A stretch of DNA of 64,000 nucleotides. Origin: Thermodesulfobacteriota bacterium. GTDB lineage: Bacteria; Desulfobacterota_D; UBA1144; Nemesobacterales; Mycalebacteriaceae. The stretch is taken from contig OZ242184.1 of assembly GCA_965205855.1 (NCBI GenBank), positions 886,570 to 950,569 on the forward strand. Direction: 5' to 3'. Of this stretch, positions 5,752 to 52,643 are shown one piece after another; position 1 is the stretch's first letter, and each line of letters opens with the position of its first letter. Made by a program: the position numbers and the translations under genes. Below the pieces are notes generated by a model, which saw nothing but the letters and a program-made list of their open reading frames with translations, ran no database searches and had not been told where the DNA came from.

Positions 5752-6837
5752 CTACACATTGAAACGAAAAAGCATAATATCCCCGTCACAAACTTCATAG
5801 CCTTTTCCCTCGGCTCTCATTTTTCCGGCTTCCTTCGCCGCCGATTCGGAACCGGCGACGATGAAATCTTCATATTTTATTGTTTCCGCCCTTATAAAAC
5901 CTTTTTCAAAATCGGAATGAATAACTCCCGCCGCCGCAGGCGCCTTTGTTCCCAGTTTTATAGTCCACGCCTTCACCTCCTTGGGTCCGGCGGTGAAATA
6001 GGTTATAAGTCCCAAGCCTTTGTAAGCCGCTTGCACAAGTTTTTCAAGTCCTGTTCTGTCAATGCCCATTTCATTGAAGAACTCTTCCCTTTCTTCAAGG
6101 TCAAGCCCTGATATTTCTTCTTCTATTTTCGCGCAGATGTTCACTACGGGGCTTGAGGTTTTCTGTGCGTGAAGTTCCACCTGTTTTGAAAATTCGGACT
6201 CCCGCGCCACATCATCAATATTGCACACATACAAAACCGGCTTCGCGGTCAGCAAAAAAAGTTGCTGTTCTTTCTCAATCTCAAGCCAATCACAATGGCC
6301 GCGGACGGAATTGCCGTCTTCAATAAACTCTCTCAGTTTTCTAACATCAGACAGCTGTTTTTTTATGTCTTTGTCGCCGCTTTTGGCTTGCGTAGCAAGT
6401 TTCTGTTCTTTTTTTTCCAGAGTTTCAAGATCTTTCAATATCAGTTCGGTCTCAATTGTCTCAATGTCACGCCCGGGATTCAAAACGCCGTCAACATGCG
6501 TAACATCACCGTCCTCAAAACATCGGACGACATGAACTATTAAATCCATCTCGCGTATATGAGAAAGAAAAGCGTTGCCCTTGCCCTTGCCCTCGGACGC
6601 GCCCTTCACAATTCCCGCGATGTCAACAAACTCGATAAAAGCCGGAACCATTTTTTCGGGTTTCACAAATGACTGTATTTTTTCAAGCCGCTCGTCAGGA
6701 ACCGCAGCAACACCGATGTTCGGCTCTATTGTGCAGAAAGGGAAGTTTGCTGCTTCCGCGTTTCCGTTAGAAAGAGAGTTGAAAAGTGTTGATTTGCCCA
6801 CATTGGGAAGCCCTACCACGCCGCATTTGAGTCCCAT
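5752..6837 (-). CDS. ychF: redox-regulated ribosome-binding ATPase YchF
   Basis: MGLKCGVVGLPNVGKSTLFN P-loop, TGS domain at the C-terminus. The ORF-track start at 6915 is TTG and overlaps tRNA-His. The internal ATG (MGLKCG) at 6837 is the likely start. Confidence 0.9.
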   Translation of the reverse strand: MGLKCGVVGLPNVGKSTLFNSLSNGNAEAANFPFCTIEPNIGVAAVPDERLEKIQSFVKPEKMVPAFIEFVDIAGIVKGASEGKGKGNAFLSHIREMDLIVHVVRCFEDGDVTHVDGVLNPGRDIETIETELILKDLETLEKKEQKLATQAKSGDKDIKKQLSDVRKLREFIEDGNSVRGHCDWLEIEKEQQLFLLTAKPVLYVCNIDDVARESEFSKQVELHAQKTSSPVVNICAKIEEEISGLDLEEREEFFNEMGIDRTGLEKLVQAAYKGLGLITYFTAGPKEVKAWTIKLGTKAPAAAGVIHSDFEKGFIRAETIKYEDFIVAGSESAAKEAGKMRAEGKGYEVCDGDIMLFRFNV

Positions 6838-42788: not shown

Positions 42789-43547
42789 TCAATTATGCCA
42801 CAAAAAGGGATGGAGTGTCAAACTATACGGCGACCGCCTGATAGTCGGGGAGTTCACCCATTGTTTTCCCTCAAGAGCGCGTCCCGTCTTCTTTTTGTTC
42901 ACACCGCCCCATTGTTTGAAGAAAAACGGAACCCCGCTTTCAACGCAGTTGTCCCTGATTTCCGTAACCCATTCCTCTTTCATCGGTCTTGCGCCGGGGC
43001 CGGACTCTCCACCGACAATGACCCAGTCTATGCCTGACAAATTGAGGTTTGGAAACGGGGCAAGCAACGGTTCAAGAGAAAGAAACTTCACGCAAGCATC
43101 GGTCTGTTTTAAAACTTCTGTACGGGAAAGATATTTCTCGGACTCTACGCTTGTTCCCATCCAGATGTTGGAAGTCCAGTGCAGGTGTTTGTTCGCCTTC
43201 ACAACCCTTTCCGGTCTTTTTGTGAGAACCTGAAAAGTGTGTTGAGATGCTTCGTTCATAACTTCAAAAACGGACATAATGAATTTTGCGGGAACATCCT
43301 TGTGGAACAAATCGCTCATTGAATTGACAAAAACTATTTTCGGTTTTTTCCATTTAAGCGGGTCTTTCAAAGTGTGTTCATGAGTGGTGAGTTTGAAACC
43401 GTTTCTGTATTTCTCCATCCCTTGAGCGTGAAGCCGCTTTGCCATCCGCTCGGCGTAGCAGTATTTGCAACCGTGGCTGATTTTTGAACAACCGGTAATG
43501 GGGTTCCATGTTGTGTGAGTCCATCCTATTTTGGAGGGTTGGGTCAT
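42789..43547 (-). CDS. phage Gp37/Gp68 family (DUF5131) three-Cys-motif protein
   Basis: N-terminal [26 protein letters not shown] matches the family's GWxxxTWNPxxGC..C..CY signature (C-x6-C-x2-C). The ATG overlaps the res stop (TAATG). Confidence 0.75.
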
Positions 43548-46090
43548 TACTGTTTGTTGATAACACCGTTTATATCGTCCCGCCAGCTGTCTTCAAACAT
43601 CATCCTGAAAGTAGCGGGCGTCTTATTGATGGCCATTTCGCCTCTGTCAAGGGCGATCCTGTATGTTTTTTCAAGCGTGTCGAGCAATTTTTTCTTGTAA
43701 CTCGTATCTTCGCTGCCTTTCAGGTGGATGCCCTTTGTTTCCAGAATTAGCAGTTTTCCGTTATCTTTTCGGCAGGCCACAAAATCGGGATACACGCGCT
43801 GGCGTCGCCAGCCTTGCAGATAGTACGCTTGTCTTGCAGCTATTCTGTGCCACCAGTAGATGGCGTTGCTCTTATCCAGATAAAGCGCAAAATCCCGCTC
43901 CAGACCGTTAAAACTACTTTCATAAACAGGTTCAAAAAGGTTTTGCTGTATAGGTCTGCCATGTTCGCTCTGTAATGATCTTTCTTGACTGGAAACAAAA
44001 ACCTCGAACGACTTGCTCAATTCGTAGTCCAGTCGCTGGTCGGTCTCAAGGTGAAACCGAATCACATTCCGCCCAACCTTTTCCCGAAACACCGCTTCGG
44101 CCTCGTCGTCTATGGCCTTGTTCACGCGGCGGCTCAATTCTTCGGAAAGGTAAATTCGGTTATTCAACAATTTGCTTTCATCGTGTTTCCTGTTTTTATG
44201 TGTTTGAATAAACCCCTCCGCCATGCGCGCCGCCTGCCACGGATTGGGCACCTTGTCCACAAGCCGCCGAACAAAATAATCCACGCTCAGCCGCTTTTCG
44301 CTGTCAGGGATTTGTTCCGAAGCCTTAACCTGCCCTTGAATGTCCACCGTGGTTTTGATCTCCTGAGTGATGTCTCTATCATCCAGATTCACCGCTGCGC
44401 CCGCGTCAATGGTGTCCCAATCAATCGCGCTTAATATATCGCGGTCGTAATCAATGGGGCGCCAGGTGCGCCCCGCTTTGTGTAACACCTGCGGGAGAAA
44501 AATTTTCAATGGCCGGTATTTACCACGACGTTTGACGGTGGTCGGTTTCGGTGCATCGCCCTCGCCATGCCCGTGAACAAAATCGCCAAGCCCGGTCAGC
44601 CCTTCATTCTCCAGGCCGGCCTTCACGCCTTTGATCGCCTTGCCTACGACCTGATTATAGCAATAGATATAACACTGGTTCAGCGCATCGCCTTGTGCGA
44701 TTCTGCGTGCATGGGGTTGCCGCATCACCCGACCGACCATTTGCGTGATGGCGGTGGTTGCGGTGGTGTTATCCAGCAAGGCAAGCAGATATGCAAACGA
44801 GCAATCCCAGCCTTCTTTCAGCGCGTCTTTGGTGATAATCCAGCGCACCTCGCTTGTCTCGCTCAACAAATCCTCACCCGCAAGTTCCTTGCGTTCCGAT
44901 GATTGAATCCTGATGTGATTCTCCGGCACAGCAAGATTTTGTATCAGGTATTCGCGCGCATCCTCCGAATGAATTTTTCCTTGCCCTCTTTGTTTTGCGC
45001 CCGTTCTTTCCACCCTGACCAAAGCGATGGGTCGGATATGGCGGTTTTCCTGTTCCTGTAATTTTTGCGCCGCACTTTCAAGCTCATCCAGTTTTTCCTG
45101 TGTTTTGGCAAGCGTGTGTTCCCAGTCGGAATTGCTGAAACTGTGAATCTCTATCGGCAGTTTGATCATCTCCTCGTCCTGGAGGTCGCGGCCCGATGTG
45201 TTGACCAGGATATTGCTGATGCCGATTTTCGGCGTGGCGGACAGTTCAAGCACAAAACGGGGGTTGAGCCGGTTGACGGATTTGACAAACTCCTGGTTGT
45301 TTTGATTATTCGGTCCATATGCTTTATGCGCTTCGTCCAAAATCACCGTGGGACGAATCAGTTTCAGCACATTGATCAGGCTTTGCTTAACCCAGTCGCC
45401 GGGTGCATTTTTCTCCAGGTCGGGATGGTGTTCCGAAAGCGTTGCATTGGCCGCCGCGTCATCCTGCTCGGGAAAAAACGACATATACCCGCTGCTGTCG
45501 CGGAATATTTTGAGAAACTCCCTGTTCTTTTGCCGGTTGGCGGAGGGTAGCATCAGCAGCATAATGCAAAGATAGTTTTCGGTATCCTGTCGGGTAAAGC
45601 GGTCGGTTTTTTGCAACAATTTGACCCTGCCGCCAGACATATGTTCGAGCATCTGCCGGTAGGTATGTTCGCGGGTGTGGAACGCCTGGCGGGTCTGCTC
45701 GTAGATCGCCCGGGTCGGCACAATCCACAACACAAAGCCGGTATCCCGCTTGATCCGCTCAAGCGTGGCCACGCCCAACAGCGTCTTGCCGCCGCCGGTC
45801 GGCACCTTCAGGCAAACATGCGGGATGGGTTCGCCGGATGCCGCAGTGCGGGAAATGTAGCCGGGAACTGCCATGTCACCGTCTTGGGAAATGCCGGGGA
45901 GGATATTTTGATCTTTCAGCGCCTTCCAAGCTAAGAGGGGATAGTTTTGCAGTTCTTCAGGAATATCAATCCCCGACTCTTCAAGAGCTTTGCCCGCCTT
46001 TTCACTAGTCAGCCGCGCTTCCTTGAGCGCGTCCAGCCAGCGGTCTAACTGTTCAAGAGCTTGTTGCTGATAGTTTTTCAGGGAGAGCAT
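43547..46090 (-). CDS. res: Type III restriction enzyme Res subunit (SF2 helicase plus C-terminal PD-(D/E)xK nuclease)
   Basis: Walker [13 protein letters not shown] box [11 protein letters not shown] (LSATP), motif [12 protein letters not shown]-terminal VYPDF...LILETKG nuclease core. Start set at the internal ATG ([10 protein letters not shown], 46090) abutting the upstream ORF. The ORF track extends to 46225. Confidence 0.8.
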
Positions 46091-46091
46091 A

Positions 46092-46649
46092 TCACGGATT
46101 TTTTGAGTCAGTACTGTCTGAATTATTTGGCAAATTGATGATTTCAACAGGCACATTCCTTTTACCAACTGCAAGACCGACAGCGTAGTTACGGATAATA
46201 GTTTGATCCATTTCCATATCCGCATAGCCTTGTGGATAGTACGAACCCCTTAGAATTTCCATCTGTTCTACCTTAAAATCTAGCACCTTGGCCATTGAGC
46301 TAAGCATCTCCGTGAGCAATTCCATTTGCTCCTTGCCGAGTCGTTCATAGTGCGAACGAGAATCATTTTCTTCGTTAGGCCTCTTAGCATGCGTTTCACC
46401 ATAATGCTTGCGGAGTGCTGCCCATTTTTCTATAACTTCTTTATGCTTAACAAATTCTATCTCAACCAGATTAATGGCTCCGACATAATCAGGTGATAAA
46501 CGCGCATTTCGTGTACGCATTAACGTCTTGAATATATCCATTTTTCGCGCCTTTTGTTCGCGCCATCTGTCAAGAAGACCGTTAACCCAGACAGCTGCGC
46601 AAGGACCGATTAAGATGGCTGCAATGGTGATGATAGAATATGAATTCAT
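46092..46649 (-). CDS. hypothetical membrane-anchored protein (single N-terminal TM), embedded between mod and res
   Basis: ATG start, N-terminal hydrophobic helix IITIAAILIGPCAAVWV, then a charged helical region. 2-nt gap to the mod stop and 1-nt gap to the res start. Visibly AT-richer than its neighbours. Confidence 0.55.
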   Translation of the reverse strand: MNSYSIITIAAILIGPCAAVWVNGLLDRWREQKARKMDIFKTLMRTRNARLSPDYVGAINLVEIEFVKHKEVIEKWAALRKHYGETHAKRPNEENDSRSHYERLGKEQMELLTEMLSSMAKVLDFKVEQMEILRGSYYPQGYADMEMDQTIIRNYAVGLAVGKRNVPVEIINLPNNSDSTDSKNP

Positions 46650-46651
46650 GT

Positions 46652-48291
46652 TTATCTTATACCCTCATATGGTAATTGGGCAAAAGTTATCCCCATCTCG
46701 GTTAATGCTTTTTGTCCCATGAATTTGTGAGTGGCGAACACCACCGCGGTTTTCTTTTTTGCCTTGGCCTGTTTGGCGATGCGTTCGGCGCGGGTGCTGT
46801 TCAAAGCGGAATCCGCACTGCGCAGAAAATCAAGGTTCGGCTCGTAGATCAGGTAAAACATTTTGTCACCTGCTTCATAAAATAAACCGTCTTTGCCACG
46901 CCTTGTTTTCGGGTTGAGTTTATGCGGCGATTGTCCGCTTGCGGTATAGATCAGATGGCGGGCAAAGGTTTCATAGCCCGGCAGGTTCCTGCCGGTGAGC
47001 ATTTTTTCAATGCTGATTTCATCGCCCAGTGTGCAATAGGCAAAACTGCCGCCCAGTCCGTTTTTTAGGTTCTCATCCTTTGCTTTTGGTATGCCCTTTA
47101 TCACACGGCGAACGCGCTCGGCGGTGATTTTGTCGGCGTAGTCTTCGCATTCCACCAAGATAAATTTGCGGTTGCCGCCGTCTTCCTTGTTCAGCGCAAG
47201 CACGGCGTGGGCAGTGGTGCCGGAACCGGCGAAGGAGTCGAGGATAATGGCGTTTTTTGTCGTTGCCAGTTGTAAAATCTTTTTCACAAGGGAAATTGGT
47301 TTGGGGTTTTGGAACTGATTAGAACCAAACACCGTCCTCAACTCGATTGTGCCGTTGGTTGTTGTACCTACATCATCCCACCAAGTGCTAGGCGTTAACC
47401 CCCTTCGGCGTGCCTCTGACAAAAAACGTTTGCGCTGAGGTCTGGAACTATTTCTCTTTCCGAATACGATTCTATTGTCTGCAAGAAGCTCCTCAAATTT
47501 GTTCAAATCGTTTTTCCAGCAATTACCTTCAGTGGGGTAAAATATTTCTTTTGTTTTAGGGTTTCTTATCGGATACATCTGATTAGGTCGAACCCCACCA
47601 GCCTCAAATGGATCCGCCTTCCATGGGCCTCTCGGATCATTATCAGGATTTTTGAATCCTTCTAAAATGGCAGGAAGTTTGAAATCTTTTCTAATGGTTT
47701 TTAATACATTCAGTTGTTTAGCATAAGCTATATTATGAGTGTGTGATATTGATACTAATGCAGGATTTGTAATTGATTTTGTGCTATGCCACACAAAATC
47801 TGCAACAAAATTCTCCTCCCCAAAAATCTCATCCATGACCATCCGCAGGCGGTGCTGTTCATTGTCGTCGATGGAAATAAAAATTACGCCATCTTCGGCC
47901 AGCAATTCTCTTAACAACTGCAATCTTGGCCACATCATGCACAGCCATTTGTCGTGCCGCTCCAGGTCTTCGCCATCCACCGGACTTTTGCCTTTCAGCC
48001 ACGCCTTCATCATCGGGCTGTTGACATTGTCGTTATAGACCCATTTCTCATTGCCGGTGTTGTAGGGCGGGTCGATGTAAATGCAGTTGACGCGGCTGGC
48101 ATAGCGCGGCAGCAACGCCTTGAGCGCGTGCAGATTGTCGCCGTGGATAATCAGATTGTCATCAAGGGAAGGGTTACCCCCCCATTTTTCGCTGAAAGAG
48201 ATTTTTTAGTGTCTATCTCAAGTGTCCTGGACGGAACAGTCAGGTGGTGCGCATAAATGAGTTGCTTCCCTTTGAAATCAATTGTCGGCAT
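46652..48291 (-). pseudogene. mod: Type III R-M Mod subunit (beta-class N6-adenine/N4-cytosine DNA methyltransferase), frameshifted at a G7 homopolymer (phase-OFF or sequencing slip)
   Basis: The in-frame body 46652..48115 carries DPPY (motif IV, CIYIDPPYN) and FAGSGTT (motif I). Upstream in the same frame there is NLIIHGDNLHALKALL but no start, and a stop codon follows. An ATG at 48291 opens frame +1 (MPTIDFKGKQLIYAHH..) and ends 47 codons later. The two frames join if the G7 tract at 48177..48183 is 8 G. Confidence 0.75.
48177..48183 (-). repeat. poly-G7 (C7 on the plus strand) simple sequence repeat inside the mod 5' region
   Basis: gggttaccccccca on the plus strand. Homopolymer tracts at the 5' end of Type III mod genes are the classic phase-variation switch. 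Confidence 0.8.
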
Positions 48292-48448
48292 TGAAAACCC
48301 CGTAAATCAGTTTGATATTGGCTTTGAAGATACCCGATTTACTCCCCCAACCTAAACCCCTCAACCTCCCGATGCACCGCCCCTTCCCGTCTCAATTCAC
48401 TCTCCATCAAACAAACTCTTTCAGAAGCAAAACCAAGTTCAAACTGCG
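48285..48448 (+). repeat. direct repeat A: copy of the thpR 3' end (last 36 codons, 48339..48448 on the minus strand) plus about 54 bp downstream. Identical to repeat B
   Basis: 164 bp identical by eye to 51106..51269. The minus strand encodes ..LPQFELGFASERVCLMESELRREGAVHREVEGFRLGE*, compared with native ThpR ..LPQFKLEFVSDRVCLMESELRREGAVHREVEGFRLGE*. The mod ATG lies inside this repeat. Confidence 0.8.
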
Positions 48449-48830
48449 CCCGCGGTGACATGGAGAACCGGATCAAGGATCAGCAGTTGGATTTGTTTGC
48501 GGATCGCACCTCTTGTCACCGCTGGTGGCCCAACCAGTGCCGGCAGTTGCTGTCAGGGTTGGCTTACACGTTGATTGAGGGATTGCGGCGCCTTGCACTA
48601 CAGGGCACCGAACTGGCCAAAGCCAGTCCTCACAGGATCAGGCTGACACTGCTTAAAATCGGTGCCGTGATCATCCGCAACACGCGCCGCATCCGCCTAC
48701 TGATGAGCAGTGCTTATCCCCATCAGGCGTTGTTCCGCACGGCAGCCTATCGGCTCAACTCCCCATAAACCCAACCCAGTGCTGCCCCGGCATGTTGATA
48801 AACAATGGGGGTAGGGGGAGTTGCGCCCGA
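48449..48830 (+). mobile_element. IS1380-family-like insertion sequence remnant (3' end only). The right boundary is approximate
   Basis: Begins abruptly at the repeat A junction and encodes only the C-terminal 100 aa of a DDE transposase. Downstream GGGGTAGGGGGAGTTGCGC could be a terminal inverted repeat. Confidence 0.5.
48460..48768 (+). pseudogene. transposase C-terminal fragment (IS1380/IS4-like)
   Basis: ENRIKDQQLDLFADRTSCHRWWPNQCRQLLSGLAYTL resembles the conserved C-terminal block of IS1380-family transposases (ENRIKE..L..ADRLSCH..ANQ.RL). The N-terminal roughly 350 aa are absent. Confidence 0.6.
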
Positions 48831-48959: not shown

Positions 48960-50099
48960 TTATTTTCGGATGAGAAACAGAAATTCTTTATTCGGATCGC
49001 TGGATTCCCGCAACCACTCATTTGTCCATTTCATGGCGGCCATCACATTTTTTTTATACTCAATTTTTGCGCTATCCACAATTTCTCCGTTACGCGTTAT
49101 CACCTCGTTTAATTCCTCCGCGGTTGCTCGTCCACCGGAACTGTAAGAGAGCAAGATCCATCGGCAAGGAGTTTCCTTCAGCAAACGCTCTATGGCTTCC
49201 ACCACAACCAATCGTCCTGATTTGCTTCTACGAAATTCCTCGAACACTGAAGTCGCCACTTTATCGGATGTGTCTTTTCTGCGGAGGGACTTGCCAAATA
49301 GCACGGGATGATCATTTTTACATATGGTCGTCCACAAATGATAATATGAAGCGTACCGAACCCTTGAAGGTGGCATTTTTTCATTGTTTGACCCATACGG
49401 AGGATCAAAATAAGCAAGATCGGCGTCCGCTTCGGGAAGTACCTTAAAAACATCACCACACAGCACCGTGTTTTCGATTTCATTTTTCCACAACCGTGGC
49501 ACTTTCAATTGTAAATTTTTGAATGAACGCGGCGACCAATCTTTTAAATAAGAAACAAAATGACCAAGAGTACTGTCTATCTCATTCAACCCTAAAATCA
49601 GGCTTGTCAATGCCACACTTTTGGAAACGTCATCCAGCATCAAGGCATCGATCTCTCTCCTGATTGCATCAAGTTTTCTTGTATTTTTTTTCTGCCAAGG
49701 CTTTTTGGTTCCATCCTTCTGAATAGCATTATGGCAAGTTCCAGAGCGAACATCACCACCGTAATTCTCAGTAAACCATCCGTCTTCCGGAGGAAGCGAA
49801 TTTAAATGATCAATAAGAGGTTGGTATATTTTCGGGTTTTTTAAGTTTTTCAAATAGCACGTGGCAAAAATTCTTGACCATTCGGAAATATCATTTGATA
49901 CCACGCGATATCCTGCTTGTGCAAAAGATTGACTTACTCTGGTGGAGCCTGAAAAACCGTCAAAAATGCTTTTTGCTCCGGTCTGTTTTGACAGATTAAA
50001 AATATGTGGAAGCAGTTTCAGTTTTGAGCCTGCGTAATTGATGCCTTCGGTTTTTGGAACATCAATCCAATCACGAAAAATTTGAACTTGCCCTTGCAT
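48960..50099 (-). CDS. Dam-family (D12 class, alpha-type) N6-adenine DNA methyltransferase
   Basis: NYAGSKLKLLP (compare Dam WAGGK), FDGFSGS (motif I) and YFDPPYG (motif IV) in the alpha-class order. Has a C-terminal extension of about 100 aa. AT-rich. Confidence 0.8.
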   Translation of the reverse strand: MQGQVQIFRDWIDVPKTEGINYAGSKLKLLPHIFNLSKQTGAKSIFDGFSGSTRVSQSFAQAGYRVVSNDISEWSRIFATCYLKNLKNPKIYQPLIDHLNSLPPEDGWFTENYGGDVRSGTCHNAIQKDGTKKPWQKKNTRKLDAIRREIDALMLDDVSKSVALTSLILGLNEIDSTLGHFVSYLKDWSPRSFKNLQLKVPRLWKNEIENTVLCGDVFKVLPEADADLAYFDPPYGSNNEKMPPSRVRYASYYHLWTTICKNDHPVLFGKSLRRKDTSDKVATSVFEEFRRSKSGRLVVVEAIERLLKETPCRWILLSYSSGGRATAEELNEVITRNGEIVDSAKIEYKKNVMAAMKWTNEWLRESSDPNKEFLFLIRK

Positions 50100-50776
50100 T
50101 ATGTAACTTTAAAGCGGGAAGCCTGCTTGAGTCTAACAATATCATCTTTCACTTTTGCAAGAGCCTCATTCTGGCCGAAATCAGAAGAAACAAGCGCGTG
50201 AGAAAATAGTTGGACCAAGATAGGATTGTGAGAATAATCAACCCATCCATTGGTTATGCTATCAAAATAGTTTAAACCACTTTTTGTATGAGTCCAAAGC
50301 CCTCGCTGGAGGGCATTGGCGGTTGCGCTTCCATAACGCACCTCGCAAATATAAGAATCGCTTGCATCGTAGAAACGATATACTGGGTGCTTTCTACCTT
50401 TCTTTTTTGTTTCTTTTACTATTTTCACCGTTTCAGTTTCAGCGCGGTGGTAATCGAAGACAAGAATATTACACTGTCGATTTTTTTCGTCATAAATTAA
50501 TGGCAAAACATTTACATTGTAAAAATCCGAGAAAGCGGGGTCGGCAAGCACTCGTTGTACATTTTTCTTGCCCACTATTTCATCCCCCTCTTGTGCCAAT
50601 CTCGGAAACATTTTGAAATTCTTGTCGGTTGAAAGTTGAAGGGGACCATCACCATACGCTTTGATGCTAACAGGAAATTCAGCTTCGGTTACTTCATTTA
50701 TTATTTTGATGTCTTCTTCCCGAGATTTGGCTCTGTATAAATCTTTGCCAACATGGATCGAGCGAAAATCATACAT
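50099..50776 (-). CDS. hypothetical protein. Putative Type II restriction endonuclease partner of the Dam-like methyltransferase (by context only)
   Basis: Co-oriented with the methyltransferase gene, start-stop overlapping it. AT-rich. No motif I can name from sequence. Confidence 0.4.
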   Translation of the reverse strand: MYDFRSIHVGKDLYRAKSREEDIKIINEVTEAEFPVSIKAYGDGPLQLSTDKNFKMFPRLAQEGDEIVGKKNVQRVLADPAFSDFYNVNVLPLIYDEKNRQCNILVFDYHRAETETVKIVKETKKKGRKHPVYRFYDASDSYICEVRYGSATANALQRGLWTHTKSGLNYFDSITNGWVDYSHNPILVQLFSHALVSSDFGQNEALAKVKDDIVRLKQASRFKVT

Positions 50777-50777
50777 A

Positions 50778-50987
50778 CTACTGGTTGATAAATTCGGCTA
50801 TGGCGATTTCTGCCAAATCTCCATGTGTTTTATTTCCAATGAGGCGCATGGTGAAAATGTTGCTCAATGTCAAGATTATTAAATCCGGGCGTTTACTCGC
50901 AAGAAGCTTCAATCTCGAGATGAAATCTTTATATGGATCATTTTTCATGTTTTTCGTTTGATGCCTCTGTTTTGGTATTTTTATCAA
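50778..50987 (-). CDS. small ORF (TTG start). It may be the N-terminal part of the downstream endonuclease gene split by a frameshift, or a separate small gene
   Basis: Its stop lies 1 nt from the ATG of the 225-aa ORF, in another frame. Combined length would be about 294 aa. Confidence 0.25.
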   Translation of the reverse strand: MIKIPKQRHQTKNMKNDPYKDFISRLKLLASKRPDLIILTLSNIFTMRLIGNKTHGDLAEIAIAEFINQ

Positions 50988-51105: not shown

Positions 51106-51269
51106 TCGGCATTGAAAACCCCGTAAATCAGTTTGATATTGGCTTTGAAGATACCCGATTTACTCCCCCAACCTAAACCCCTCAACCTCCCGATGCACCG
51201 CCCCTTCCCGTCTCAATTCACTCTCCATCAAACAAACTCTTTCAGAAGCAAAACCAAGTTCAAACTGCG
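51106..51269 (+). repeat. direct repeat B: identical to repeat A
   Basis: 164/164 identity with 48285..48448 on visual alignment. Continues on the high-coordinate side into more thpR-homologous sequence. Confidence 0.8.
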
Positions 51270-51338
51270 GCAATTCGGGTAGCTTCATCCTTTTTTTTAT
51301 CCACCCTATCGTAACGTGCGACATAAAATCCCGTTATT
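51160..51338 (-). pseudogene. thpR 3' fragment (last 57 codons), diverged copy
   Basis: Encodes RDFMSHVTIGWIKKRMKLPELPQFELGFASERVCLMESELRREGAVHREVEGFRLGE*, compared with native RDFIPHITIGRIRKRIKLPELPQFKLEFVSDRVCLMESELRREGAVHREVEGFRLGE*. There is a stop codon immediately upstream in frame. Confidence 0.75.
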
Positions 51339-52050: not shown

Positions 52051-52256
52051 TCAGTTTGATATTGGCTTTGAAAATACCCGATTTACTCCCCCAACCTAAA
52101 ACCCTCAACCTCCCGATGCACCGCCCCTTCTCGTCTCAATTCACTCTCCATCAAACAAACCCTGTCAGAAACAAACTCAAGTTTAAACTGCGGCAATTCG
52201 GGCAGTTTTATCCTTTTTCTTATCCGCCCTATCGTAATGTGTGGTATAAAATCCCG
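52051..52256 (+). repeat. native copy (C) of the repeated thpR 3' terminus plus downstream flank
   Basis: About 85-90 percent identical to the B fragment over about 200 bp. Homology ends at cagtttgatattggc, 32 bp past the stop. Confidence 0.7.
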
Positions 52257-52643
52257 TTTCTCCGGCTCAAAACCGATTGTCTCAAGTTTTGAGTCAATCT
52301 CGTCCTTGAGACTGAAAAACGCGTCCCCGGATTCCGCAATCACCGCAAGCGTCTGCGTATAACGGCGGAGTATAAGCGCCTCAACCCCGTCCGTTGTGAT
52401 GTCGAGCGGCACAAACCGCTTGCAACAACTTTCAATAACCCCGCACAGTTCGGGAATCAATTCGCGGCGCGTCTCTCCGAGAAACCTTAAAGTAATATGG
52501 AATTTTTCAGACAGCTCCCAACGCACATGGCGGAGCGAGCGTATTGCGGCGGAACGGGATTTTATCACCCTTTTTGCTTTTTCGGGAACTTCAAGAGAAA
52601 TAAAAAGCCGGACGGTAGCGCTGTCAACTCTCAAGCTCAACAT
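52083..52643 (-). CDS. thpR: RNA 2',3'-cyclic phosphodiesterase (2H phosphoesterase, LigT/ThpR)
   Basis: Two H-x-T/S-x motifs (HITLRFLGE and HITIGR) in the 2H fold. Start chosen at MLSLRV (52643). The ORF track begins at 52664. Confidence 0.85.
   Translation of the reverse strand: MLSLRVDSATVRLFISLEVPEKAKRVIKSRSAAIRSLRHVRWELSEKFHITLRFLGETRRELIPELCGVIESCCKRFVPLDITTDGVEALILRRYTQTLAVIAESGDAFFSLKDEIDSKLETIGFEPEKRDFIPHITIGRIRKRIKLPELPQFKLEFVSDRVCLMESELRREGAVHREVEGFRLGE

Follow-up and report, generated by a model that had tools for sequence, protein, structure and literature searches.

Restriction-modification (R-M) of Type III is a textbook two-gene system, made up of mod and res. We describe here a Type III operon in which a further gene, encoding a 185-residue protein of the Pfam family DUF6680 (PF20385), lies between mod and res; it occupies positions 46092-46649 on the minus strand of a 64,000-nucleotide stretch of a Thermodesulfobacteriota genome (contig OZ242184.1, positions 886,570 to 950,569), and we refer to this whole stretch as the window. 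The operon resembles canonical Type III systems (EcoP1I/EcoP15I-type, phasevarions) in the motifs of its Mod and Res proteins and in a homopolymer tract in the 5' part of mod, but it departs from them in its internal third gene and in a fourth gene, DUF5131, that overlaps the res stop codon. We find that DUF6680 genes have been recruited repeatedly into R-M operons, where they always adjoin the methyltransferase gene, and we propose that the window protein is probably an undescribed accessory part of R-M defence.

Two described systems are close to this arrangement. Csx28 is a protein of 177 residues in which one N-terminal transmembrane (TM) helix precedes a helical bundle in the cytoplasm; it assembles into a pore of eight subunits and boosts defence by Cas13b (bioRxiv 10.1101/2021.11.02.466367). 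DUF6680 resembles this Type VI-B protein (PDB 8gi1) in its size of ~180 residues, in its single N-terminal TM helix (predicted here) followed by a cytoplasmic helical domain, and in being an optional accessory whose gene adjoins that of a defence enzyme targeting nucleic acids. The HEPN motif of Csx28 is divergent, however, and DUF6680 has no conserved R-x4-6-H of that kind; the profile match between the two stands at E=3.2 and 8gi1 is absent among the Foldseek matches in the PDB, so that a homology finds no support in the fold search and we retain Csx28 as an analogy only. The second system is PrrC, whose gene lies inside the EcoprrI (Type Ic R-M) locus and which is a latent second-line defence restrained by the R-M enzyme (PMC1484252). 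Like the window gene, prrC is an extra gene inside an R-M operon, but PrrC is a soluble ABC-ATPase/RNase with a Type I partner, whereas DUF6680 is small, predicted to be membrane-anchored and without nuclease or NTPase motif, and its partner in the window is Type III.

Parallels can also be drawn with superinfection-exclusion and entry-exclusion (Sie/Eex) proteins and with the cargo of the P2 hotspot (old, tin), since small membrane proteins are carried there by prophages and mobile elements, as DUF6680 homologs are; DUF6680 differs in resembling no entry of PHROGs or BFVD, either in sequence or in fold. The window protein is also unlike an R-M controller (C) protein in that it has no helix-turn-helix (HTH), and in some Bacillota loci a separate 70-residue HTH_26 gene precedes DUF6680. 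Within the DUF6680 family itself, the window clade is set apart by lying between mod and res rather than standing solo.

A DUF6680 gene within a mod-res operon

The DUF6680 gene begins with an ATG at 46649, 2 nt beyond the TAA stop codon of mod (46654-46652), and its TGA stop codon (46094-46092) is separated by 1 nt from the ATG of res at 46090, both junctions having been read directly from the sequence. We sought minus-strand terminator-like sites at the mod/DUF6680/res gene boundaries and saw none. An earlier note on this DNA, made from the sequence alone, had described a 185-residue open reading frame (ORF) between mod and res with 1-2-nt spacing, and its coordinates and junctions read as described. 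The same note had seen no recognisable motif in the protein; here it was wrong, because the protein matches DUF6680 over essentially the full length of the family profile (E=5.9e-47; 159.9 bits against a gathering score of 23.2 bits; residues 1-177 aligned with profile positions 1-168 of 170). A near-full-length match at this score places the ORF far beyond chance. Nor is the ORF a remnant of another gene, a possibility that the earlier note had raised and that is ruled out by the full-length match to an independent family and by a length that is kept across thousands of clusters. DUF6680 was the sole match of the protein in a Pfam and NCBIfam scan, which returned no ABC-type NTPase, anticodon-nuclease or HTH family, and neither PADLOC-DB v2 (0 families at E<=0.1), NCBIfam nor PHROGs held a match.

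The gene is AT-richer than mod and res, as had been remarked in the earlier note: its GC content and GC content at third codon positions are 0.421 and 0.398, compared with 0.468 and 0.523 for mod and 0.517 and 0.607 for res, and its GC content falls within the lowest 5.4% of 558-nt windows across the 64-kb window. We note that the target-recognition stretch of mod is even AT-richer (GC 0.36-0.40). The single N-terminal TM helix that the earlier note proposed is likewise predicted by our analysis. Residues 4-22 have a mean Kyte-Doolittle (KD) hydropathy of 2.04, above the usual threshold of 1.6, and a basic stretch, DRWREQKARK, follows; the protein is therefore predicted to be a signal-anchor with its N terminus out and its C terminus in, leaving the remainder cytoplasmic. 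On the basis of this hydropathy and of the family alignment we place the predicted helix at codons 4-25 (46575-46640, minus strand), where it contains the motif A11-x3-G15-P16-x2-A19.

A conserved membrane helix and an all-alpha domain

An exhaustive profile search recovered 2,828 clusters (50% identity) of the family at E<=1e-3, of which 1,677 reach E<=1e-10, and we found no paper mentioning DUF6680 or PF20385 in the literature that we searched. The window protein is thus a new member of a large family that is catalogued but unstudied and uncharacterised, and whose fold is unmatched in the PDB and BFVD. The AlphaFold2 (AF2) model of the window protein, built with 75 homologs, is of high confidence and all-alpha, with a predicted local distance difference test score (pLDDT) of 89.8 and a predicted template-modelling score (pTM) of 0.72, and consists of helices at residues 3-45, 53-65, 70-84, 97-122, 127-134 and 140-160.

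Conservation across 229 members falls both within the predicted TM helix and in the soluble domain. In the helix, A11 (94%), G15 (91%), P16 (99%) and A19 (93%) all lie on one helical face. Such a small-xxx-small face around a central proline is expected for specific helix-helix packing in the membrane and is unlike a passive anchor. The conservation that we see goes far beyond the needs of a passive anchor, and hints, as far as an alignment can, at self-association through the small-residue/proline face. The near-invariant residues of the soluble domain are R47 (99%), N60 (99%), E65 (91%), F66 (96%), Y137 (98%) and P139 (98%). The window protein carries every one of A11, G15, P16, A19, R47, N60, E65/F66 and Y137-x-P139, and shares with the family the motifs FxxLMxTR, ALNLxExEF and YxP; at position 55, which is H in 76% of the family, it has Y.

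DUF6680 has been recruited repeatedly into R-M operons

We surveyed the genomic context of DUF6680 at 47 loci in species-representative genomes, at 71 loci on metagenome contigs and on one viral contig, using local hidden Markov models (HMMs) for DUF6680, Mod, Res and one recurrent neighbour. The mod-DUF6680-res order of the window recurs in two metagenome-assembled genomes (MAGs) of sponge symbionts, a Nitrospirales MAG (locus L004) and Ca. Spongiihabitans (L005). The ORF is thus present in homologous operons, and the tight coupling to which the earlier note had drawn attention is preserved in them, the junctions ranging from a 4-nt overlap to a 4-nt gap. A decaying copy of the operon from which res is absent is found in a Ca. 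Poriferihabitaceae MAG (L007, 7010-8530); its Mod, the first 105 residues of which are 93% identical to those of window Mod, has an internal deletion, and its DUF6680 is frameshifted past residue 122.

A second gene order is seen in gut Bacillota, where mod-res is directly preceded by DUF6680 (L045, L048-L050). This clade is very abundant, comprising 942 clusters at 90% identity, some of which occur on ~100 contigs, and in every context of it that we looked up DUF6680 overlaps the start of an R-M methyltransferase gene by 11-14 nt; taken over L045, L048-L050 and the P0320, P0247 and P0308 loci, the overlap is 4-14 nt. The R-M-linked copies sit on at least three distinct mobile-element backbones: those that carry DUF6680-N6_N4_Mtase-ResIII (P0320, P0247) encode integrase, RepA_N and NikA, or type IV secretion and TnpV, or Mob_Pre and primase together with RelB-ParE. 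At the P0308 loci a Cro/C1-type HTH_26 protein of 70 residues is encoded ahead of DUF6680 and N6_N4_Mtase, and ResIII/SWI2_SNF2 or other genes follow. The P0319 loci (22 similar places, including L141, 4001-7250, and L142) encode an 831-residue enzyme with N6_Mtase and Eco57I matches instead of the Type III pair. Here DUF6680 is followed by a 44-residue ORF, probably a remnant of mod, at the position where mod begins in sister loci, and L141 and L142 share their element backbone with loci that carry DUF6680-mod-res. At these loci, then, the Type III pair has been swapped for a Type IIG-like enzyme downstream of a fixed, retained DUF6680. We also found fusion ORFs, each on one contig, that join HTH_26 to DUF6680 (twice, with different junctions; P0231, P0237) or DUF6680 to the N terminus of Mod (P0341). 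These may be genuine functional hints or frameshift or sequencing artefacts, and we give them little weight.

In a neighbour-joining tree the R-M-linked members form two clades that lie apart, each beside solo lineages, and we therefore count at least two independent recruitments into R-M operons. A survey for homologues in other R-M operons, which the earlier note had recommended, thus bears out their recurrence (in L004, L005 and the Bacillota loci), and the secondary insertion into the operon that it had read from base composition is the most likely history, the R-M copies nesting among solo lineages and low GC content being a property of the family at large (see below).

Divergence of the operon and selection on DUF6680

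Comparison of the window with L005 indicates how the parts of the operon have diverged. Identity in Mod is 92-98% across its conserved parts and only 10-38% in the target-recognition region (~residues 110-320; window 46652-48115 compared with L005 6490-7986, the 5' part of the L005 gene lying at 6289-6440). This difference is a classic case of swapped target-recognition domains, which alters specificity. Res is 91% identical and DUF6680 79%. Synonymous divergence (dS) is nevertheless similar throughout (0.17 for DUF6680, 0.19-0.28 for mod and 0.23 for res), and the three genes therefore have one common history. Recombination is ruled out as the source of the DUF6680 divergence, for its dS matches that of the flanks (0.19-0.23) and the excess is non-synonymous.

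Relative to the more distant L004, the window DUF6680 protein is 65% identical (dS 0.74, dN/dS 0.29), whereas Res is 41% identical and its synonymous sites are saturated (proportion of synonymous differences, pS, 0.73). This disparity points to an exchange of the DUF6680 gene, and perhaps of some stretches of mod, between divergent Type III operons. The deeper comparisons that involve the L004 ortholog give dN/dS values of 0.29 and 0.24 for DUF6680; the DUF6680 gene is real and under purifying selection. The conditions that the earlier note had set for its refutation thus do not hold, as far as sequence analysis can tell.

DUF6680 genes as AT-rich mobile cargo

Members of the family also occur away from R-M genes. 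All-against-all clustering of 533 neighbouring ORFs revealed no conserved neighbour of DUF6680 beyond Mod, Res and a conserved glycine-rich protein of ~111 residues. The last of these is the commonest partner, accompanying DUF6680 in roughly 40-45% of loci (L013, L016, L018-L033, L035, L037, L038, L043, L051, L052, L056 and ~30 metagenome loci; for example, L021 7654-7986). Its gene is usually upstream of DUF6680, with stop and start codons overlapping, and is sometimes convergent or downstream. The partner, the consensus of which is MxGxYAxYYTG..G.GHAV...GAD..GG.YDG.Y...VPAG..LVTG...GPVN..FKKLR, is without a Pfam family and is absent from the window. Its profile weakly resembles GrlR, a regulator of type III secretion (PDB 2ovs, 4kt5; E~0.03 over 57 residues). 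Assignment as a firm member of the GrlR family is borderline, with E=0.03 for the PDB profile and 1 of 14 members matching in NCBIfam at E=0.15, and we refer to the partner below as GrlR-like.

Several members are carried by phages and plasmids. The Yersinia P2-like phage vB_YenM_31.17 (L128, 5890-6552) encodes a DUF6680 homolog between gpA and gpQ (local HMM E=9e-32), which has an extra N-terminal hydrophobic segment; a 3'-5' exonuclease and a number of small hypothetical genes lie beside it. The gpA-gpQ position of P2 is a documented anti-phage hotspot, old and tin being among the systems housed there (PMC9122126). In an IMG/VR prophage, the GrlR-like partner and DUF6680 together form a moron between the minor and major head genes, and Vibrio parahaemolyticus plasmids encode an annotated 'DUF6680 family protein'. 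The GC content of DUF6680 is below that of its ±8-kb surroundings in 59 of the 60 loci with sufficient flank (mean difference -0.10; Wilcoxon p=1.8e-11). The deficit thus marks the family as a whole as horizontally moving cargo and is no peculiarity of the window operon; DUF6680 genes are AT-rich mobile cargo on phages, plasmids and integrative mobilisable elements.

The Type III partners

The window mod gene (46652-48291, minus strand) is recognised by the PADLOC profile MTase_III (E=9e-146) and by Pfam N6_N4_Mtase (E=5e-32), and has DPPY and FAGSG motifs. The res gene (43547-46090, minus strand) encodes a protein of 847 residues that matches PADLOC REase_III over profile positions 2-879 of 883 (E=6e-213) as well as Pfam ResIII, and in its translation the GGGKT and DEAH motifs of a superfamily 2 (SF2) helicase and a C-terminal PD...ETK motif of a PD-(D/E)xK nuclease can be read. 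The window thus encodes the two enzymes that define a Type III system, a beta-class N6-adenine Mod (DPPY, FxGxG) and a helicase/nuclease Res, in an organisation other than the two-gene one, with DUF6680 between them and DUF5131 overlapping the res stop codon. Since Mod and Res keep all of their catalytic motifs, DUF6680 adds a function and does not substitute for one that was lost.

The mod frame is interrupted in the window. The earlier note had placed the mod start at 48115, whereas the actual ATG is at 48291 and a frameshift lies between, so that 46652-48115 is solely the post-frameshift part of the gene. The MTase_III alignment to the downstream frame begins at about position 55, and the N terminus of Mod that is absent from it (MPTIDFKGKQLIYAHHLTVPS...) is encoded in another, upstream frame, from ATG 48291, and is homologous to that of the intact L004 Mod. 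At the junction of the two frames is a run of seven guanines (G7; 48177-48183, minus strand) that leads to a premature TGA at 48153-48151; a G8 tract would put mod back in frame. At the same site L005 has G24 followed by (TAA)3 and is also out of frame, and L004, without a homopolymer tract, has an intact Mod of 539 residues. By its sequence the tract resembles the simple-sequence switches of phase-variable Type III mod genes, here perhaps in the OFF state; alternatively, the frameshift could be a homopolymer assembly error.

The fourth gene of the operon, DUF5131 (42789-43547, minus strand; Pfam E=3.8e-98), has an ATG that shares 1 nt with the stop codon of res. Its product is also recognised by PADLOC models of two candidate-system components, PDC-M41B and PDC-M30B (E~1e-115), and matches PHROG 2045. 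DUF5131 occupies this position in the window only, and is absent after res in both L004 and L005.

A possible role at the membrane

How might a small membrane protein contribute to restriction? We tentatively favour the reading that DUF6680 works at the membrane as an accessory to defence, is expressed together with the Type III R-M system and is likeliest an oligomeric effector, a reading that draws on the analogy with Csx28. The recurrence of the R-M linkage, the conflict-related settings of other members, the conserved TM face and the precedent of PrrC as an effector inside an R-M locus also speak for it. The N-terminal TM helix would self-associate through its conserved small-residue/proline face, with the all-alpha domain of ~160 residues facing the cytoplasm. 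As mobile cargo recruited at least twice into R-M operons, and translationally coupled there to the adjoining methyltransferase gene, DUF6680 would act at the inner membrane as an accessory of the Type III system, and may have a physical or signalling link to Mod or Res. With the DNA-targeting enzyme engaged or blocked, the oligomeric effector would add a second layer at the membrane, which could be depolarisation, exclusion or an arrest of growth, in a logic akin to that by which Csx28 augments Cas13b or to that of PrrC within a Type I R-M locus. It is also possible, and we hold this wider proposal to be rather doubtful, that DUF6680 constitutes a new and widespread class of membrane accessory that makes R-M (Type III and, by swapping, Type IIG-like) a three-component system in which restriction is coupled to a membrane event, with the same module also used solo or with the GrlR-like partner as an independent mobile defence cassette; that event could be pore formation and depolarisation, exclusion of DNA, or a sequestration that times restriction.

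A number of our observations weigh against a membrane effector in the service of restriction. About half of the surveyed DUF6680 members are solo, mostly amid housekeeping genes; we looked for defence-gene enrichment in the neighbourhoods of these solo members and saw none. Searches of PADLOC, NCBIfam and PHROGs match the protein to no known effector; the family profile finds nothing significant in the PDB, Csx28 included; and Foldseek of the AF2 model against the PDB and BFVD returned nothing below E=0.3. A search by profile and structure, as the earlier note had proposed, has in this way yielded a Pfam family and no fold match. Between the window and L005, dN/dS is 0.62 for DUF6680 and 0.04-0.21 for mod and res at similar dS, which could come from a relaxation of constraint or from pressure to diversify. 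As assembled, both the window and L005 have mod out of frame, and the operon may be off or decaying. The two HTH-DUF6680 fusions are topologically awkward if the helix spans the membrane with its N terminus out and its C terminus in. Finally, tight operon packing is equally typical of compact mobile cargo whose products do not interact physically. The role of effector, abortive-infection toxin or sensor at which the earlier note had arrived was drawn from context, and it gains nothing from PADLOC or from the surroundings of the solo members. That DUF6680 also occurs solo, with no defence enrichment nearby, and has no homology to known effectors keeps our confidence in it as a membrane-acting accessory of R-M modest.

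Of the alternatives, the one that survives best, although we think it unlikely, is that DUF6680 is an independent exclusion protein of the Sie/Eex kind, which would hinder the entry of foreign DNA alone and be co-packaged with R-M genes under a shared promoter merely as a second piece of cargo directed against incoming DNA, without interacting with Mod or Res. Such a protein could be expected to occur as many members do, solo or paired with the GrlR-like protein and without R-M, and to travel in a P2 hotspot, in a moron of a prophage head module, on plasmids and on integrative mobilisable elements; it could also stay put when the type of the downstream R-M system is swapped, and the recent dN/dS of 0.62 fits a protein that contacts components of an invader. 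Independence from Mod and Res is harder to reconcile with an adjacency to the methyltransferase gene that is kept across backbones and in two gene orders, with overlapping or 1-4-nt junctions. Moreover, most of the protein is predicted to lie in the cytoplasm, and PHROGs and BFVD show no similarity to known Sie/Eex proteins.

We regard it as slightly less probable still that DUF6680 is hitch-hiking or decaying cargo with a role outside defence, such as in membrane stress or housekeeping, and that its position between mod and res is a tolerated insertion. The housekeeping surroundings of solo members and the absence of defence enrichment there, the absence of a matching PADLOC defence model, the dN/dS of 0.62 relative to the closest ortholog (L005), the frameshifted mod of the window and L005 and the degradation of the entire unit in L007 would all be explained. 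Against this, the association with R-M is independent and repeated, extending over hundreds of contigs and several architectures; purifying selection is apparent at greater depth; polar residues are near-invariant across phyla (R47 99%, N60 99%, Y137 98%); and the family-wide foreign GC content and the carriage by phages and plasmids speak against housekeeping.

Least probable of the readings that we considered is that DUF6680 serves as a membrane tether or regulator, its cytoplasmic domain binding Mod or Mod2Res and either placing restriction at the membrane where DNA enters or delaying it until a system that has just arrived, or has just been switched ON, has methylated the genome: a constant adjacency to mod with translational coupling is typical of subunits made in fixed ratio, the mobile elements that carry DUF6680 must establish R-M in naive hosts, the window lineage is linked to a poly-G, phase-variable-looking mod, the Cro/C1-type HTH directly upstream in some Bacillota loci resembles R-M controllers, and one ORF (P0341) fuses DUF6680 to Mod, but solo and GrlR-like-paired members have no R-M partner to tether, a strongly conserved TM motif is unnecessary for a mere anchor, DUF6680 is kept before a non-homologous Type IIG-like enzyme, and the fusion ORFs are single-contig and perhaps sequencing errors.

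If DUF6680 does serve R-M, a conserved third component, predicted to be membrane-anchored, would be an undescribed layer of R-M biology; both the three-gene arrangement and its scale in gut mobile elements appear to be undescribed. Such a component could bear on how mobile or phase-variable R-M systems spare an unmethylated host at establishment, on whether restriction is organised where DNA enters the cell, and on how membrane effectors back up defences that target nucleic acids, Csx28 with Cas13b being an example. The R-M linkage also offers a first functional handle on a family of ~2,800 clusters (50% identity) that is without literature or fold relatives in our searches, and the survey has identified a second uncharacterised partner, the GrlR-like protein of ~111 residues.

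The surrounding defence island

A 208-nt direct repeat is present in three copies in this part of the window, at 48307-48514 (copy 1, ~15 nt upstream of the mod start), 51128-51335 (copy 2) and 52051-52258 (copy 3). Over 142 nt, copy 1 and copy 2 match at 100% identity, and the identity of copy 3 is 91%. In the minus-strand sense, a distinct set of minus-strand genes begins just downstream of each copy, namely the mod operon, a putative Type II R-M module and a 136-residue multi-TM ORF. An Rfam scan of the repeat and of the operon region gave no RNA match, and the repeat was not found in the homologous loci that we compared. It may be a shared promoter or regulatory element, or a cassette boundary.

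Abutting copy 1, between the two R-M modules, is a C-terminal fragment of a DDE_Tnp_1_4 transposase (48460-48768, plus strand; 100 of ~435 residues), an insertion-sequence remnant inside the defence island. Beyond it, at 48960-50987 on the minus strand, is a region encoding a D12-class adenine methyltransferase of 379 residues, the ATG of which overlaps by 1 nt the stop codon of an upstream 225-residue ORF without a Pfam match; a 69-residue ORF is found just upstream of the latter. Together these three ORFs are probably a second, Type II-like R-M module beside the Type III operon, in which the 69- and 225-residue ORFs may be one interrupted endonuclease gene.

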